DNA of 64,000 nt. It comes from Bifidobacteriaceae bacterium. Lineage in GTDB: Bacteria > Bacillota_I > Bacilli_A > Erysipelotrichales > Erysipelotrichaceae. The notes below the pieces were generated by a model. That model made no database searches. It saw only the letters and a program-made list of their open reading frames with translations, and had not been told where the DNA came from. The translations under genes were made by a program, and so were the position numbers. The stretch is from assembly GCA_963661415.1 (NCBI GenBank), contig CAVLCI010000001.1:468-64467 (forward strand), read 5' to 3'. Shown piece after piece: positions 3,595 through 9,300 of the stretch (its first letter is position 1; the number at the start of each line of letters is the position of its first letter).

Positions 3595-4209
3595 ATGAAA
3601 ATTTCTTATAATAAAACAAAAATCAACATGTATCTCAAACAATACAACTTAAAAGACTATTTACAAGATTATGAATTAATTTTGTATTCTTTTGATGCAT
3701 CCGAAAAATTAAATGAGAAATTAAATCCAAAACAATTTCTTTTATTTCTAGTAAAAGGAGATGTTGCCTTAAAATCCGTACGTCAGGATGGTTCTCTTCT
3801 ACAAACAACAACAGCTAAAGCATTTACTTGTTTTGGAGAAATGGAACTCGCAAATTCTGATGCAAAACAAAACATCATTGAAACCATTACTGAATGTGAA
3901 ATGATTGGAATTGATATTGAAAAATATCGGTTAAAAATCGAAAACGATCCTAAGCTATTAAAACTACTACTCAAAAGTGTCGTACAAAAGATTGCCCTCA
4001 TTTCAGATTTATTATTTGAAACAACAGATGTACAAAGTAGAGTATTGTTTTATTTAGAAAATGAATCAAAGAATCATGAAATCCATGGTGTCGAACAATT
4101 ATCACAACATTTAAATTGTTCTAGAAGACAACTACAAAGAGTATTAAAAAATATGGTAAATGAAGGTATGATAGTAAAAAAGAAAAAAGGTGTTTATGTC
4201 AAAAAATGA
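3595..4209 (+). CDS. Crp/Fnr family transcriptional regulator
   Basis: cNMP-binding fold (LVKGDV...FGEMEL) plus C-terminal HTH (LSQHLNCSRRQLQRVL). Confidence 0.9.
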   Translation: MKISYNKTKINMYLKQYNLKDYLQDYELILYSFDASEKLNEKLNPKQFLLFLVKGDVALKSVRQDGSLLQTTTAKAFTCFGEMELANSDAKQNIIETITECEMIGIDIEKYRLKIENDPKLLKLLLKSVVQKIALISDLLFETTDVQSRVLFYLENESKNHEIHGVEQLSQHLNCSRRQLQRVLKNMVNEGMIVKKKKGVYVKK

Positions 4210-4969
4210 AATTTCTATTATGAGTTTAAATCTACTAACAAGTCATTTACGTACATTTCGATACAAATCTTTTTCTAAACGAAGTATCGCAATCAAACAA
4301 ATGATTCAACAATATCAACCAGATATCATAGGTGTACAAGAAATGAACCAAACAATGTACACTGCACTATCTGATCTTTTTGATACTTATGAAATTCATG
4401 GAGAATCAAGACATTCTAAACATAACGATGAATACTGTTCTATTCTATTTAAGAAAGAAAAATATGAATTATTAGAAACAAGAACACTTTGGCTTAGTAA
4501 TTCTCCAATAATTCCTAGTTCTAAACATCCATTTTCCCAATTTCCTAGAATCGTTACTTATGCATATTTAAAAGATAAAAAAACAAATCAAACATTTACA
4601 GTTTATAATACGCACTTAGATTCTAACTTTGAACTTGTACGTCATTTCCAAGCAAGAGCGTTATCTCAAATTATTCAAGACACGCAAAAAGGTGCCTATA
4701 CGATCTTAACAGGAGATTTCAACTGTAACAGTTTATCTTCCGCATACAAGATCATACAAACACCTTTCATGGATCTAGTAGATGATTCCATTGGTTCTAC
4801 ATTAAGAGGTACATTTGGATCCATTCGCTATCATCATATTCCAATTGATCATATCTTTATTTCCCCAAAGTGCAAAAAATCACACGTAACAAAAATCACC
4901 TCTAAGTTTTCAAATATCTATCCAACTGATCATTTTCCAATCTATGTAAAATGCACTCTGAAGTTATAA
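4196..4969 (+). CDS. Endonuclease/exonuclease/phosphatase family protein
   Basis: PDIIGVQE, NTHLD, GDFN, IDHIF, TDHFP motifs; RBS AAAGGTG before ATG 4196. Confidence 0.92.
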   Translation: MSKNEISIMSLNLLTSHLRTFRYKSFSKRSIAIKQMIQQYQPDIIGVQEMNQTMYTALSDLFDTYEIHGESRHSKHNDEYCSILFKKEKYELLETRTLWLSNSPIIPSSKHPFSQFPRIVTYAYLKDKKTNQTFTVYNTHLDSNFELVRHFQARALSQIIQDTQKGAYTILTGDFNCNSLSSAYKIIQTPFMDLVDDSIGSTLRGTFGSIRYHHIPIDHIFISPKCKKSHVTKITSKFSNIYPTDHFPIYVKCTLKL

Positions 4970-7306
4970 TCATTTCAAATAGTTCAATATTTCCTCTAAA
5001 GATGCATAAAGTTTGGTATTTACATCATTCACAGTCACTAGTGTAGGTACTTGTGTGATTCCAAATTCCTTTACAAGATTTGGATTATTATCGATATCTA
5101 CAAGTAAATATGGAATCTTAAATGTATTTAATTCTTTTTGAATCGTTTTACTATCTATATCTGTTTTTGAAATAAACAATAAATTATTTGTGTTATCTAA
5201 AGGCATCCAAGAAATTGATTTTTTTGGTTGTTTTTTCTTTTTGGAAGCTTTTCCTTCAACATCAAAAAAGACACGTTCTTTAAATTCTTGTAACTTTCCA
5301 GCATTCCAGTTTTTAACTGGACGATAATAGCCTGTAATTCTAGAAAAGACTTCTGTTTTTTGTCCACACTTTGGACATTTCCATACTTCTCCTAAAAGAT
5401 AACCATCGTTGATACAAAAGCTATAGGTCGGTGAAAGTGTGAAATATGGCAACGTATAGTGTTCACTGATTTTTTTCACTAACATCGCTGCACTTTTCCA
5501 ATCTGATAATCTTTCTCCTAAATAAACATGAAATACTGTTCCAGATGTATAAAACTTCTGTAATGATTCTTGAATATCTAGCGCACTAAAAATATCAATC
5601 GTTGTATGCGCAGAAAATTGAGAACTATTGGTATAGTAAGGTGTGCCTGTTTGATTGGCACAAATAATATTAGGATCTTTTTCTTGATCCATTTTTGCCA
5701 AACGATACGCTGTACTTTCTGCAGGGGTTGCTTCTAAGTTATACAAATCTCCATATTGTTTTTGGTAATCTAATAATCTTCGTTGCATATACGCTAACAC
5801 TTCTTGTGCGAAATTTTGTGCATTTGGATCCGTTAGATCTTTTTGTAGCCATTTCGCATTCAAACAAGCTTCATTCATCCCAATAATTCCAATCGTAGAA
5901 AAATGATTACCAAAATCTTTTAAATAACGTTTTGTATATGGATATAAACCATTTTCCAATAGTTTTGTTAGTACTGTTCGCTTTGTTTTTAAACAACGTG
6001 CACTGATATCCATGTGATGATTTAAAACGCGATAAAATTCTTGTTTGTCATTTGCTTCAAACGCTATTCTAACAAGATTGATCGTTACAGCCCCAATGGA
6101 TCCTGTTAGTTCTCCACTTCCAAAATAGCCACCACCTTTCCGATAAAGTTGCGACAAGTTTCTTTCTTGATTTAATACAACTTTCGGAATGGAATTCTTA
6201 TGCATTTCATTTGAAAAATAAGGAATTCCATACTTCGCACTCATTTCAAATAAAAGTGCATTATTTTCAGATTCCGACCAATCAAAATCATTTGTTAGAG
6301 AATAGGTTGGAATTGGATATTGAAAGATCTTTCCTTCATAATCTCCTTCCATCATAACTTCCATGAATGCTTTATTAATGACATCCATTTCTTTTTTACA
6401 TTCACCATACGTAAAATCTTGTTGTTTTCCACCAACGATCGCATACGTATCTTTTAAATGTTCTGGTACATTCCAATCCAAAGTAATCGTTGTAAATGGT
6501 GCTTGTGAACCCCATCTACTAGAAGTATTCACACCATAAATAAAGTTTTGGATACTTTGTTTTACTTCCTTATAAGAAAGATGATCTACTTTCACAAAAG
6601 GAGCAAGATACGTATCAAAAGAGGAAAAAGATTGTGCACCAGCCCATTCATTCTGCATGATTCCTAAAAAATTGACCATTTGATCGCACAATGTATCTAA
6701 ATGTTTTGCAGGTCCTCTAGAAATCTTTCCATCCACACCACGCAATCCATTCACCAATAATTGTTTGATTGACCAACCAGCACTATACCCACTTAACATG
6801 CTTAAATCATGAATATGAATATCTCCATTACGATGTGCTTGTGCTACTTCTTCATCATATGCTTCAGATAACCAATAATTTGTAGTAATTGCACCAGAGT
6901 TTGAAAGAATCAAACCACCAATAGAATACGTAATCGTACTATTCTCTTTCATTGTCCAATCCAATGCATTTAAATATCGATTCACAAGAGATTTATAGTC
7001 TAATGTCGTTACAGATATATTACGAATATTTTCTCTTTGTTTACGATATAAGATATACGCTTTTGAAACATCCGCATATCCTGCTTCACTCAATACTTTT
7101 TCTACACTATCTTGAATATCTTCAACATCAATTTTTTCATCTACGATCTTATTTTGAAAATCACTTGTTACACGAATCGCAATCAAATCCACTACATCAT
7201 CTGTATAGTTTTTATGACATCCGATAAAAGCTTTTTTGATTGCATTTGAAATCTTGGATATATCAAATAGAACCGTACTTCCATCTCTTTTAATGACTTT
7301 ATACAT
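4970..7306 (-). CDS. nrdD: Class III (anaerobic) ribonucleotide reductase homologue with N-terminal ATP-cone and C-terminal glutaredoxin-like domain; catalytic cysteines absent
   Basis: VIKRDG ATP-cone, HIHDLS, EWAGAQ, EATPAES, YYTNSS, CxxD/CxxC Zn site, SRITGYYRP glycyl loop; GYC replaced by GYS and SMCCR loop missing. Confidence 0.9.
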   Translation of the reverse strand: MYKVIKRDGSTVLFDISKISNAIKKAFIGCHKNYTDDVVDLIAIRVTSDFQNKIVDEKIDVEDIQDSVEKVLSEAGYADVSKAYILYRKQRENIRNISVTTLDYKSLVNRYLNALDWTMKENSTITYSIGGLILSNSGAITTNYWLSEAYDEEVAQAHRNGDIHIHDLSMLSGYSAGWSIKQLLVNGLRGVDGKISRGPAKHLDTLCDQMVNFLGIMQNEWAGAQSFSSFDTYLAPFVKVDHLSYKEVKQSIQNFIYGVNTSSRWGSQAPFTTITLDWNVPEHLKDTYAIVGGKQQDFTYGECKKEMDVINKAFMEVMMEGDYEGKIFQYPIPTYSLTNDFDWSESENNALLFEMSAKYGIPYFSNEMHKNSIPKVVLNQERNLSQLYRKGGGYFGSGELTGSIGAVTINLVRIAFEANDKQEFYRVLNHHMDISARCLKTKRTVLTKLLENGLYPYTKRYLKDFGNHFSTIGIIGMNEACLNAKWLQKDLTDPNAQNFAQEVLAYMQRRLLDYQKQYGDLYNLEATPAESTAYRLAKMDQEKDPNIICANQTGTPYYTNSSQFSAHTTIDIFSALDIQESLQKFYTSGTVFHVYLGERLSDWKSAAMLVKKISEHYTLPYFTLSPTYSFCINDGYLLGEVWKCPKCGQKTEVFSRITGYYRPVKNWNAGKLQEFKERVFFDVEGKASKKKKQPKKSISWMPLDNTNNLLFISKTDIDSKTIQKELNTFKIPYLLVDIDNNPNLVKEFGITQVPTLVTVNDVNTKLYASLEEILNYLK

Positions 7307-8447
7307 GATTAACACCTCTCAATTGCACTTGCGGTATGATTTTTCTTGCCTCATTTAATATTTCATTCATTTCATCTACACTATATCCATGAAAACCTGC
7401 ATGAATGCAATTATCAGAATCATTAAATTGTTGTAGATACCAAGCATCACATTGTCCAATCCACTTGGCAATCTCAACAATATCTTCTTTTGTATGAAAT
7501 TCTTTTACAACAGTCGTTCTAAATTCATAAGGAATACCACATTGTTTCATATAATTCATGCTTTCTTCTATCATATCTACAGAAAAATGTTCTGATTCAT
7601 TTCCAATTGTCATTGCGTATTTATCTTTTGTATTCTTAATATCCATCGCAATATAATCTACTAGTTCTAAATCTACGATTTCTTTTAAACGACTTAAAAA
7701 ATTACCCGCAACATCCAATTTAACTTGATACCCAATATTTTTAATTTCTTTTAAAAATGGAACAAGTTTTTCCTGCATCAAAGGTTCACCACCACTAATA
7801 CAAACCCCATCTAAAATATTTTTTCTTTTTTCTAAATAAGAAAATATTTCATCTACATCTACAAATGCATAATTTTCTGGAATATAAACCAAATCACGAT
7901 TATGACAATATGGACATTTAAAACTACATCCACTTGTAAAGATCGTCGCACAAACTTTTTCAGGATAATCAATCAAACTCATTTTCACAAGTCCACCAAT
8001 CTTTAGATCCGCAAGATCTTCAAAATGATTTAATTGTTCTCTCGAATTATTTGTTACAACTGACATCATTTCAGAAAACGCATCAAAATCAATATCCTTT
8101 GATAATATCTTTCTACATTCATTTCGATATTGATATATTGCATGCATTACTTCATGTGCTTTCTCTGTTGTATAAAGATGTTTACTTCTTCTATCTTTTT
8201 CATCTTGTTTAGATTGTACATACCCCTGTTCTATCAAGCGATTGATAGATTTTGTTGTGGTACCTTTATCCACTTCTGATACACGCGTTACATCTTGCAT
8301 CGTGCATCCTTCATTTTCATTAATAAATGTCAAAAAAACAATTTGACCAGAACCAATGTCATACTTCGATAAAACATGATCAAAATACTTCATAATATTT
8401 CGATATAAGATCGATATATCCATTAAAAAATTCTCATTTGGATTCAT
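7299..8447 (-). CDS. nrdG: Fusion of MarR-family HTH and anaerobic RNR activating radical-SAM enzyme (NrdG)
   Basis: N-term MarR (VDKGTTTKSINRLIEQGYV..DEKDRR); C-term IGGLVKMSLIDYP, CSFKCPYC, ISGGEPL, YIAMDIK, YEFRTT; RBS GGAGG before ATG 8447. Confidence 0.92.
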   Translation of the reverse strand: MNPNENFLMDISILYRNIMKYFDHVLSKYDIGSGQIVFLTFINENEGCTMQDVTRVSEVDKGTTTKSINRLIEQGYVQSKQDEKDRRSKHLYTTEKAHEVMHAIYQYRNECRKILSKDIDFDAFSEMMSVVTNNSREQLNHFEDLADLKIGGLVKMSLIDYPEKVCATIFTSGCSFKCPYCHNRDLVYIPENYAFVDVDEIFSYLEKRKNILDGVCISGGEPLMQEKLVPFLKEIKNIGYQVKLDVAGNFLSRLKEIVDLELVDYIAMDIKNTKDKYAMTIGNESEHFSVDMIEESMNYMKQCGIPYEFRTTVVKEFHTKEDIVEIAKWIGQCDAWYLQQFNDSDNCIHAGFHGYSVDEMNEILNEARKIIPQVQLRGVNHV

Positions 8448-8472: not shown

Positions 8473-8500
8473 ATTTTATCGAACAAACAACCTCTGTCAA
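8473..8500 (-). promoter_or_regulatory. Sigma-A promoter of marR-nrdG/nrdD operon
   Basis: TTGACA (8500-8495) - 16 bp - TAAAAT (8478-8473). Confidence 0.6.
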
Positions 8501-8579
8501 ACAAACTTCAAAAAATAAAACTTGATTTTTAAATCAAAATCGTGTAAAACATTACAACAATGAAAGGAGATTAGATAAA

Positions 8580-8714
8580 ATGAGTCATCGTATTGAGTAT
8601 CTTACGATCGATGGCGGCACTGTTATTGAATTTACAGACGATAAAGGATATGCTCGCTTAGCTAACGAAGCAGACATGGGTTACATCGTAATCAAAAATT
8701 ATAGCCGTTATTGA
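8580..8714 (+). CDS. Unannotated 44-aa small protein MSHRIEYLTIDGGTVIEFTDDKGYARLANEADMGYIVIKNYSRY
   Basis: Strong RBS AAAGGAG, upstream TTGATT-17-TAAAAC promoter, protein-like composition. Confidence 0.7.
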   Translation: MSHRIEYLTIDGGTVIEFTDDKGYARLANEADMGYIVIKNYSRY

Positions 8715-8832
8715 TAAACAATGTTGATCATTGTTTTCATCAATCGATCAAAAGAAAAAATCCCCATTTTGGGAATCATATATAGTATGATAGATGCATC
8801 TGAAAAGATGCATTTTATTTTGGAGAAAACAA

Positions 8833-9300
8833 ATGAAAAAATATACTGAAGAACAATCCATTTCAAATAAACCAGAACTAGATTCTTTACTCGCTCAAAG
8901 AAAGGCACCACTTTCTGAAGAAGGATTAAACAAAGTATTACAACAACTCACACTATTTATTAGTCAAGATATCTTTTTCTTTGGTGCATTATATCCCAAA
9001 AATGATAAACAAACAGAATCTATCTTAGCGTGTACTGAAATTGATAAAGCAGATATGATGGAAGGAACAGATGGCGAAAGATATTATCCTGTATTCTCCT
9101 CTATCGAAAAATTAAAATATTGGAAACCAAAACTACAAAAAGGCGAATACTATTACATCTTTACAAAGAATGATCTATTAACATTTTTAGATTGTAACCA
9201 AAAAGTAGCAGCAGTCGTTATGAACCCACAAGAAGATGATCTTTTATTACATCGTATGTTACTACAAAACCTCATCCAAGTAGGAAAAGATAATCAATAA
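8833..9300 (+). CDS. SseB family protein
   Basis: DGERYYPVFSSIEKLKYW ... AVVMNP pattern of SseB N-domain; RBS GGAG. Confidence 0.7.
   Translation: MKKYTEEQSISNKPELDSLLAQRKAPLSEEGLNKVLQQLTLFISQDIFFFGALYPKNDKQTESILACTEIDKADMMEGTDGERYYPVFSSIEKLKYWKPKLQKGEYYYIFTKNDLLTFLDCNQKVAAVVMNPQEDDLLLHRMLLQNLIQVGKDNQ

Follow-up and report, generated by a model that had tools for sequence, protein, structure and literature searches.

Can a bacterium keep, under selection, a homologue of the anaerobic ribonucleotide reductase (RNR) that has lost the cysteines of its radical chemistry, and what might such a protein do? Glycyl-radical enzymes (GREs) and RNRs are defined by the transfer of a radical from glycine to cysteine, and a natural cysteine-less (hereinafter Cys-less) member amounts to a test of a stranded glycyl radical in cells. 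The question is raised by two reverse-strand genes in a stretch of 64,000 nucleotides from a member of the Erysipelotrichaceae (contig CAVLCI010000001.1, positions 468 to 64,467; hereinafter the window, with its first letter as position 1), the host of which is described as a gut-type bacterium. One gene codes for an NrdD-like protein, a Cys-less orthologue of the thiol-type (MCCR finger-loop) class III RNR with a C-terminal glutaredoxin (Grx)-like domain, and the other for a MarR-type winged helix fused to an NrdG-type radical S-adenosylmethionine (SAM) activase (MarR-NrdG). The finger-loop, beta-A and Grx CxxC cysteines of the NrdD-like protein are lost, so that all three redox sites are gone, and the gene has since been under purifying selection; the protein thus has the two attributes of a pseudoenzyme and is the first natural one of class III RNR type found in the literature that we searched.

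By sequence and fold, and by an RxxGY glycyl loop beside a zinc site, the NrdD-like protein belongs with the class III RNRs. It matches the Pfam NRDD profile (PF13597) with 565 bits over profile positions 1-562 and the NCBIfam model NF006126 with 972.6 bits against a cut-off of 548, and the top Foldseek matches of its AlphaFold2 model are all class III RNRs (E 1e-31 to 1e-20). Translation probably begins with the ATG at 7306, the listed open reading frame (ORF) at 4970-7315 opening with a GTG at 7315; its database twin P0003 is likewise 778 amino acids long. The features of the gene are as follows:

7306..4970, reverse strand: NrdD-like gene, 778 amino acids, Cys-less orthologue of thiol-type class III RNR with Grx-like domain
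7031..7300, reverse strand: ATP-cone, residues 6-95 of P0001 (Pfam PF03477, 83.3 bits)
6803-6817, reverse strand: HIHDL, kept
6782..6790, reverse strand: GYS (GGG TAT AGT; Ser178 codon AGT at 6782-6784) in place of the invariant GYC with the beta-A reductive cysteine
6137..6211, reverse strand: finger loop NEMHKNSIPKVVLNQERNLSQLYRK (residues 369-393), Cys-free as placed by alignment and hypervariable inside the Cys-less clade
6119..6136, reverse strand: GGGYFG segment, kept; matches the SIGG/Ile359 stretch of the Thermotoga maritima enzyme in a HMMER alignment
5714-5734, reverse strand: EATPAES, kept
5624-5638, reverse strand: YYTNS, kept
5246..5440, reverse strand: zinc-site and glycyl-radical domain, residues 626-690, with C634, C647 and C650 present and conserved
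5366-5377, reverse strand: CPKC, kept
5324-5344, reverse strand: SRITGYY glycyl loop, with the Gly662 codon at 5330-5332
4973..5179, reverse strand: glutaredoxin/thioredoxin-like C-terminal domain, residues 713-781, with its CxxC gone

What a working class III RNR has and this protein does not is the set of redox cysteines. The finger loop of canonical relatives reads YVNSDMxPSDxRSMCCRLRLDLRELRKK; among 121 aligned homologues, RSMCCRL is present in 114 and SMCSRL in 1, while 6 (the clade of the window protein and a metagenomic protein, P0025) have no cysteine there. The GYC motif, GYS in the window protein, is found in 116 of the 121. Within the clade, C380 and C381 of the finger loop and C719, the first cysteine of the Grx CxxC, are absent from 7/7 sequences, C178 is lost in 4/7 (the other three keep the beta-A cysteine) and C722 in 2/7; the same cysteines are invariant in the 114 canonical homologues. 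In the Grx-like region, which in relatives matches PF00462/PF00085 and carries CPNC, the stretch SKTDIDSK (5147-5170) replaces TKTCPNCK. The fold of this domain in the AlphaFold2 model is beta-alpha-beta-alpha-beta-beta-alpha, with a predicted local distance difference test score (pLDDT) of 80-89. An initial annotation, made from the letters of the window, had described an intact NrdD frame with ATP-cone, HIHDL, EATPAES, YYTNS, zinc site and SRITGYY, all of which we located, and the disappearance of both active-site cysteine positions, which we verified for the AGT codon and for the Cys-free loop. Its account of the redox losses stood for the active site and was incomplete at the C-terminus, where it had missed the Grx-like domain and the lost CxxC.

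That annotation had also taken the lost cysteines to be essential, and published mutants agree: the C329A and C330A forms of T. maritima NrdD are reported as inactive, and Neisseria bacilliformis NrdD as needing both cysteines of its SCCR motif (PMC4493059). In a HMMER alignment, Ser178 is paired with T. maritima Cys125, a residue which the same report describes as conserved in all known RNRs (PMC4493059), and in a survey of 1,375 class III sequences two finger-loop motifs, MGCR and MCCR, are reported to dominate (PMC9669993). With both the transfer of the radical to a thiyl and the uptake of reducing equivalents lost, reduction of nucleoside triphosphates would be impossible, and we consider the protein very probably dead as an RNR. 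The AlphaFold2 model has a mean pLDDT of 73 and falls below 50 at the finger, GYS and glycyl loops, so that it does not settle the geometry of the active site. The NF006126 score lies so far above its cut-off that annotation pipelines would label this protein an active RNR, and an enzyme activity that is presumably absent would enter metabolic reconstructions.

The losses are not confined to the window. Among the 116 genomes of the genus, five species carry the Cys-less form (G000, which is the host, G191, G221, G262 and G263), four more genomes thus sharing the same state; further, the Cys-less clusters were scanned in 36 database members, each of which has full length and no CC, and no frameshift or stop was seen in the Cys-less gene in the five species genomes or in these 36 members. 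A sequencing or assembly artefact at the cysteine codons might be suggested by GYS lying a single base from GYC. It can practically be dismissed, with the whole loop replaced, the CxxC lost and the same state recurring in independent genomes and 36 database sequences; read errors, a worry already voiced in the initial annotation, are excluded by this recurrence.

The genomic context speaks to the origin of the gene. EEP-family and Crp-like genes flank the locus both in the Cys-less genomes G191 and G221 and in G193 and G165, the nearest canonical genomes, which carry the canonical form at the same locus with 75-76% identity. Judged from sequence, the NrdD-like gene is therefore an orthologue altered in place and not a stray paralogue. 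The canonical state with its near-invariant loop is seen in 56/59 distinct loci of the genus and family; in other Firmicutes, 74 of 77 NrdD-Grx loci are canonical, the remaining 3 being truncated by the end of a contig. In a quick IQ-TREE phylogeny of full-length proteins, the Cys-less sequences come out together as one clade (support 100), the stem of which measures 0.46 changes per site. P0025, which also lacks GYC, CC and CxxC, groups with the canonical P0022 (Shimodaira-Hasegawa-like approximate likelihood ratio test 98), apart from the main Cys-less clade, pointing to a second, independent loss of the cysteines. Of 468 alignment columns that are at least 97% invariant in the 114 canonical proteins, the clade has changed at 75 and P0025 at 65, with 38 columns common to the two. 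The locus of P0025 was not found, the best match being 73% in the genus set and 72% in the wider set of genome contigs.

How, then, does the host make deoxyribonucleotides? Its genome (97% complete) has one other NRDD match, a 732-amino-acid formate-type NrdD1 with the canonical motifs CCL, MGCRSFL and RRTCGYIG, and a separate 191-amino-acid NrdG lies about 7 kb from nrdD1; a class I or II RNR large subunit was not found in the host genome. As read from these sequences, the working RNR of the host is the formate-type NrdD1 with its own small activase, which bears out the possibility, raised in the initial annotation, of a second, canonical nrdD. NrdD1 is present in 88/116 genomes of the genus, including all five Cys-less species, and the small NrdG in all three of the Cys-less genomes searched for it, G000, G191 and G221. 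A canonical NrdD-Grx without any NrdD1 match is seen in at least 15 genomes, which fits a role of the canonical form as a working RNR. The initial annotation had further offered a regulatory heterodimer with an active NrdD; this is unlikely, since the sole other NrdD belongs to a different subclass and is only ~26% identical to the NrdD-like protein. NrdR is the ATP-cone plus zinc-ribbon repressor of RNR genes. Its model (TIGR00244) has no match in the host genome, and 0/151 genomes of the family reach the cut-off; the host's only two ATP-cones are those of its two NrdDs.

Selection on the pair was gauged by omega, the pairwise ratio of nonsynonymous to synonymous divergence (dN/dS) after Nei and Gojobori (NG86), with bootstrap confidence intervals for four pairs. 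For the NrdD-like gene, the ten pairs among the five Cys-less species give omega of 0.076-0.104 at dS of 0.43-0.91, and the 95% intervals of the four bootstrapped pairs span 0.064-0.131. Within the Cys-less clade the ATP-cone is the most constrained part (0.035), followed by the zinc/glycyl domain (0.052), the barrel (~0.08), the Grx-like domain (0.13) and the finger loop (0.50). The amino-acid identity of the loop is 0.37 among the five Cys-less proteins versus 0.98 among six canonical ones, and the protein outside it is 80-93% identical; the finger loop is the only freely drifting part of the Cys-less protein. C380, C381 and C719 are missing throughout the crown, so the constraint acted after their loss, and we are highly confident that the gene is maintained by selection. 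The initial annotation had guessed as much from the open frame, and had named as an objection close relatives with intact GYC/SMCC beside a strain-specific copy decaying at dN/dS near 1: the relatives do exist (G193 and G165), whereas the decay does not, five species sharing the altered form at an omega of ~0.09.

These figures also bear on the notion that the gene is simply on its way out, redundant after NrdD1 and intact by chance under left-over constraint. In its favor, a second RNR makes the gene dispensable for the synthesis of deoxyribonucleotides, canonical relatives have an omega about half as high, the clade sits on a long stem (0.46 changes per site), an RNR-linked leader element has been lost (see below) and shorter, more degenerate forms exist elsewhere. 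The selection data nonetheless largely refute it: the loss is common to all seven crown sequences and so predates their divergence, omega since the loss has been 0.076-0.104 at dS up to 0.9 with an upper confidence limit of 0.131, frameshifts and stops are missing from the five genomes and 36 database members, only the finger loop and the redox cysteines show decay, and the truncated forms are themselves at omega 0.074. We hold this explanation to be very improbable.

The constraint on the glycyl loop and zinc site (0.052) and on the activase motifs (MarR-NrdG omega 0.058-0.147 in the Cys-less species) could alternatively betray a radical enzyme of different chemistry, acting through the GGGYFG tyrosine or Cys441 or on a non-nucleotide substrate. 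Consonant with it are the gain and fixation of C441 in 7/7 clade members, the substitutions A229S, T270S, N276T and T349S, identical in two independent lineages at otherwise invariant sites, and the alignment of GGGYFG with the segment that lies against the radical glycine in the T. maritima crystal, where the SIGG/Ile359 stretch is described as filling the finger-loop tip (PMC4493059). However, all GREs described in one review use a thiyl radical (PMC13450708), with no thiyl-free precedent found in the literature examined, and the loop expected to bear a new catalytic residue is the least conserved part of the protein (identity 0.37, with indels). Moreover, P0025 is without C441, canonical enzymes have the Tyr/Phe of GG[YF]FG just as well, most of the shared substitutions belong to the conservative exchanges that occur most often, and related lineages drop the glycyl domain yet stay under selection. 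Different chemistry accordingly seems decidedly improbable.

If the NrdD-like protein no longer reduces nucleotides, its constant partner may hold the clue to its role. The features of the partner gene are:

7299..8447, reverse strand: MarR-NrdG fusion gene, 382 amino acids, from the ATG at 8447 to the stop at 7299
8136..8390, reverse strand: MarR-type winged helix, with Pfam MarR_2, HTH_27 and MarR above their cut-offs
8217-8306, reverse strand: MarR recognition region CTMQDVTRVSEVDKGTTTKSINRLIEQGYV, near-identical between the Cys-less and canonical clades
7458..7949, reverse strand: radical-SAM activase domain (TIGR02495, NrdG2)
7905-7928, reverse strand: CSFKCPYC (CxxxCxxC), kept
7782-7793, reverse strand: GGEP, kept

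The two genes overlap by 8 nt (ATGTATAA). The winged helix is recognized by PF12802 (44.5 bits, cut-off 27), PF01047 (40.2, cut-off 24.6) and PF13463 (43.6, cut-off 22.2), and the activase by its cluster motif, its GGEP and the NrdG2 family model (211.2 bits against 131.15); the CxxxCxxC and GGEP motifs are intact in 5/5 Cys-less species. All this verifies what the initial annotation had said of the activase, the winged helix and the overlap. Its view of the fusion as peculiar to this pair fails, for MarR-type and radical-SAM Pfam domains are found together in 120/120 listed activase homologues, most of them 380-385 amino acids long, and the fusion adjoins canonical NrdD-Grx genes in relatives as well. 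MarR-NrdG is the usual activase of this NrdD type in the Erysipelotrichaceae; outside the family the activase beside NrdD-Grx is mostly short, a long N-terminal part being present in 5/44. We found no publication describing a MarR-NrdG fusion or a Cys-less NrdD in the literature searched.

Pairs still more degenerate than that of the window occur at other MarR-nrdG-linked loci (L246 in G114, L117 in G223, L248 in G227, L247/L249 in G249/G160 and L250 in G179). The truncated NrdD-like proteins are of 508-512 amino acids in G114, G223 and G227 and of 564 in G249 and G160; these five retain the ATP-cone and NRDD positions ~4-240 only, without the finger-loop cysteines or the zinc/glycyl domain. 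The form in G179 (604 amino acids) keeps the ATP-cone and ends at the zinc site, again without the glycyl domain. In all these truncated proteins the barrel is represented by its first half only. A MarR-NrdG with intact radical-SAM motifs lies beside the truncated gene in G114, G223, G227, G249 and G179, and no MarR-NrdG ORF is present in the stretch of the G160 locus examined; in G114 the EEP gene is again a neighbor. Between G114 and G223, omega is 0.074 for both genes at a dS of 1.6. The truncated-form genomes carry NrdD1 and the small NrdG, except G227 (97% complete), in which the truncated gene is the sole NRDD match, so that its working RNR, if any, would be of another class or unassembled. 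In two other genera (G050, locus L251; G054, locus L252, with G125, locus L253), the partner keeps the MarR helix and is without CxxxCxxC; to judge from their motifs, both members of these pairs appear to be dead enzymes. What stays constant across the degenerate pairs is an ATP-cone protein paired with a MarR domain. In the tree of the N-terminal part the branches, at 1-3.5 changes per site, are too long to count the origins of the truncated forms.

This series helps to weigh a non-regulatory helper, namely an O2 or radical decoy protecting NrdD1 or the activases, a nucleotide buffer or a scaffold for MarR-NrdG. Such a helper would accord with the kept glycyl domain and the presence of an activase, with the ATP-cone as the most conserved part, with a host of anaerobe-type genome relying on a glycyl-radical RNR only, and with the O2-cleavable radical carried by Cys-less PflB (PMC12338860). 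It leaves unexplained, however, why a DNA-binding partner is constant even beside forms without the glycyl domain or the Fe-S cysteines; NrdD1 has an activase of its own, and a stoichiometric decoy would need high expression. We take a helper function to be improbable.

The explanation that we regard as best overall, and as finely balanced between holding and failing, is that the window encodes a pseudoenzyme pair that has been retained to sense nucleotides and/or O2 and to regulate; a regulatory or sensing role exerted together with MarR-NrdG is plausible, if leaning slightly to the doubtful side. The series of degenerate pairs strengthens this reading. Under it, an ancestor already equipped with a formate-type NrdD and a separate activase for that enzyme would have lost both finger-loop cysteines and the first cysteine of the Grx CxxC, and the host lineage would further have lost the beta-A cysteine and the second Grx cysteine. 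The remainder, namely the ATP-cone, the barrel, the zinc/glycyl domain and the MarR-fused radical-SAM activase, is retained by selection. The NrdD-like protein might read ATP/dATP through its cone and allosteric half. ATP and dATP are reported to reshape the conformation of the cone and the oligomeric state of class III RNRs (PMC11226230, PMC12662201). The full-length form probably still receives an O2-labile glycyl radical from the activase, much as a Cys-less GRE, the C418A/C419A mutant of PflB, is reported to carry a stable, O2-cleavable glycyl radical in vivo (PMC12338860). The state of the NrdD-like protein would then be passed to MarR-NrdG, the winged helix of which may bind DNA.

Several observations weigh against this sensing and regulatory reading. 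The G191 protein has one cysteine in its loop (LKCLY) and retains GYC, P0025 has a cysteine directly before GGYFG, and Cys441 has been gained and fixed in 7/7 clade members. Omega in the Cys-less species is about twice that of the canonical relatives (0.035-0.082 where dS is unsaturated), which means that some relaxation is real; dS of the canonical pairs is partly saturated, and most genomes are metagenome-assembled. The constraint on the glycyl domain and the radical-SAM motifs exceeds what a pure nucleotide sensor would need, so that the protein may yet carry out some radical chemistry. Finally, the leader dyad linked to RNR genes, set out below, is absent from the Cys-less operon and not assignable to MarR-NrdG.

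A bolder version, which we offer as speculative and somewhat unlikely, is that in the Erysipelotrichaceae, where NrdR was not found, the anaerobic RNR and the activase that serves it were recast as a transcriptional sensor of two proteins, of which the window form would be an intermediate stage with a stranded radical. In such a sensor the cone and the dimer/specificity region would monitor the ATP/dATP pool, DNA binding would fall to the MarR-fused activase, and the stranded radical would serve as an O2-cleavable switch that sheds the C-terminal redoxin-like domain. Canonical pairs might already moonlight as sensors, which, if true, would explain why catalysis was lost repeatedly with the pair kept. 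More broadly, the pair and its degenerate relatives point to a non-catalytic job for an RNR and its MarR-activase, possibly nucleotide- or O2-dependent gene control, in a family where NrdR was not found.

Is the operon still under the leader control of the RNR genes? The region upstream of MarR-NrdG, in which a GGAGG ribosome-binding site precedes the ATG at 8447, shows the following, together with a leader element from elsewhere in the host genome:

8473..8500, reverse strand: predicted operon promoter, sigma-70-like as read from sequence, with TTGACA at 8495-8500, a 16-nt spacer and TAAAAT at 8473-8478
8522..8537, no strand assigned: perfect palindrome TTGATTTAAAAATCAA, upstream of the -35 box
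G000:C7:7478-7493 (L092/L088): nrdD1 leader dyad of the host, the only perfect copy in its genome

The palindrome is conserved, with G at its center, in G191 and G262, while G263 and G221 have looser versions; it is a candidate site for MarR-NrdG. A different element marks the RNR genes: the dyad TAGTTGGAnnTCCAACTA lies 38-56 bp before the start of nrdD1 in 30/30 loci of the genus, and 26/29 parsed family loci have it as TAGTTGAAnnTTCAACTA (nrdD1 leaders with the dyad: L070-L074, L093-L116 and L137-L163). With the form TAGTTG-N6-CAACTA, and complementarity extending up to ~18 bp on each side in some genomes, it could be an operator or a hairpin in the 5' untranslated region; Rfam gave no match at E up to 1 for either nrd locus. 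The dyad also precedes 18/20 canonical MarR-nrdG operons. It was found before 0/5 Cys-less operons and 0/3 truncated-form operons examined, and by this loss the Cys-less operon has left RNR leader control.

We also considered whether the dyad might be the operator of MarR-NrdG, and could not uphold it. Neither the Cys-less nor the truncated-form operons have the dyad; G183 and G255, in which we found no MarR-NrdG, have it upstream of nrdD1, and it occurs in three genomes of genus g7 without an NrdDh match. Its presence in genomes where no MarR-NrdG was found means that it cannot be assigned to that protein. A family-wide count of the 16-mer proved nonspecific (76/151 genomes, with many control hits and a perfect match beside groES in G016). 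Favoring the assignment are only G013, which has neither fusion nor dyad, and G114/G223, in which a variant dyad goes with a divergent MarR helix.

Set beside known systems, the NrdD-like protein shares with the MCCR/NrdDh class III RNRs, such as T. maritima and N. bacilliformis NrdD, the fold, ATP-cone, GG[YF]FG, EATPAES, YYTNS, zinc site and RITGYY, and with its canonical relatives of that type the locus, the activase type and 75% identity; unlike them it lacks the finger-loop, beta-A and redoxin CxxC cysteines, and its operon lacks the leader dyad. The coupling of an ATP-cone with a DNA-binding module inside or close to RNR genes recalls NrdR, but the two systems are not homologous as wholes: here an enzyme-derived protein bears the cone, and its activase-derived partner the putative DNA-binding domain. 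Yeast Rnr4 and herpesvirus R1 homologues such as M45 are dead class I RNR homologues kept for another role; they differ in being of another class and eukaryotic or viral, with no glycyl radical, activase or DNA-binding partner, and no class III counterpart of them was described in the literature searched. The PflB C418A/C419A mutant is likewise a catalytically dead GRE without thiyl cysteines (PMC12338860), but it is engineered and of another GRE family, whereas the window protein is natural and conserved across species. GrcA/YfiD (named in PMC12338860), the autonomous spare part of pyruvate formate-lyase, is a glycyl-radical bearer without an active site of its own, as the window protein would be if it carries a radical; yet GrcA/YfiD is a small C-terminal module restoring a damaged enzyme, while the window protein has its full length, and NrdD1, the one client it could have, is ~26% identical.

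A few further features of the neighborhood and of the homologues were recorded. The flanking genes and upstream ORFs in the window are:

4190-4969, forward strand: EEP-family (Exo_endo_phos) gene, its stop abutting that of the NrdD-like gene
3595-4209, forward strand: weak Crp/cNMP-like regulator, below Pfam cut-offs
8580-8714, forward strand: 44-amino-acid ORF (MSHRIEYLTIDGG...), divergent from the operon, with a strong GAAAGGAG ribosome-binding site
8794-9300, forward strand: 168-amino-acid protein upstream of the operon, matching the SseB N-terminal domain with 27 bits

The convergent Crp-like/EEP neighborhood is retained in canonical, Cys-less and truncated-form genomes alike, and the start region of the 44-amino-acid ORF is conserved in all five Cys-less loci. 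Among the database homologues, P0021 (950 amino acids) contains an internal duplication of ~170 residues that includes a second copy of the finger loop and may be either an assembly artefact or a real tandem duplication.

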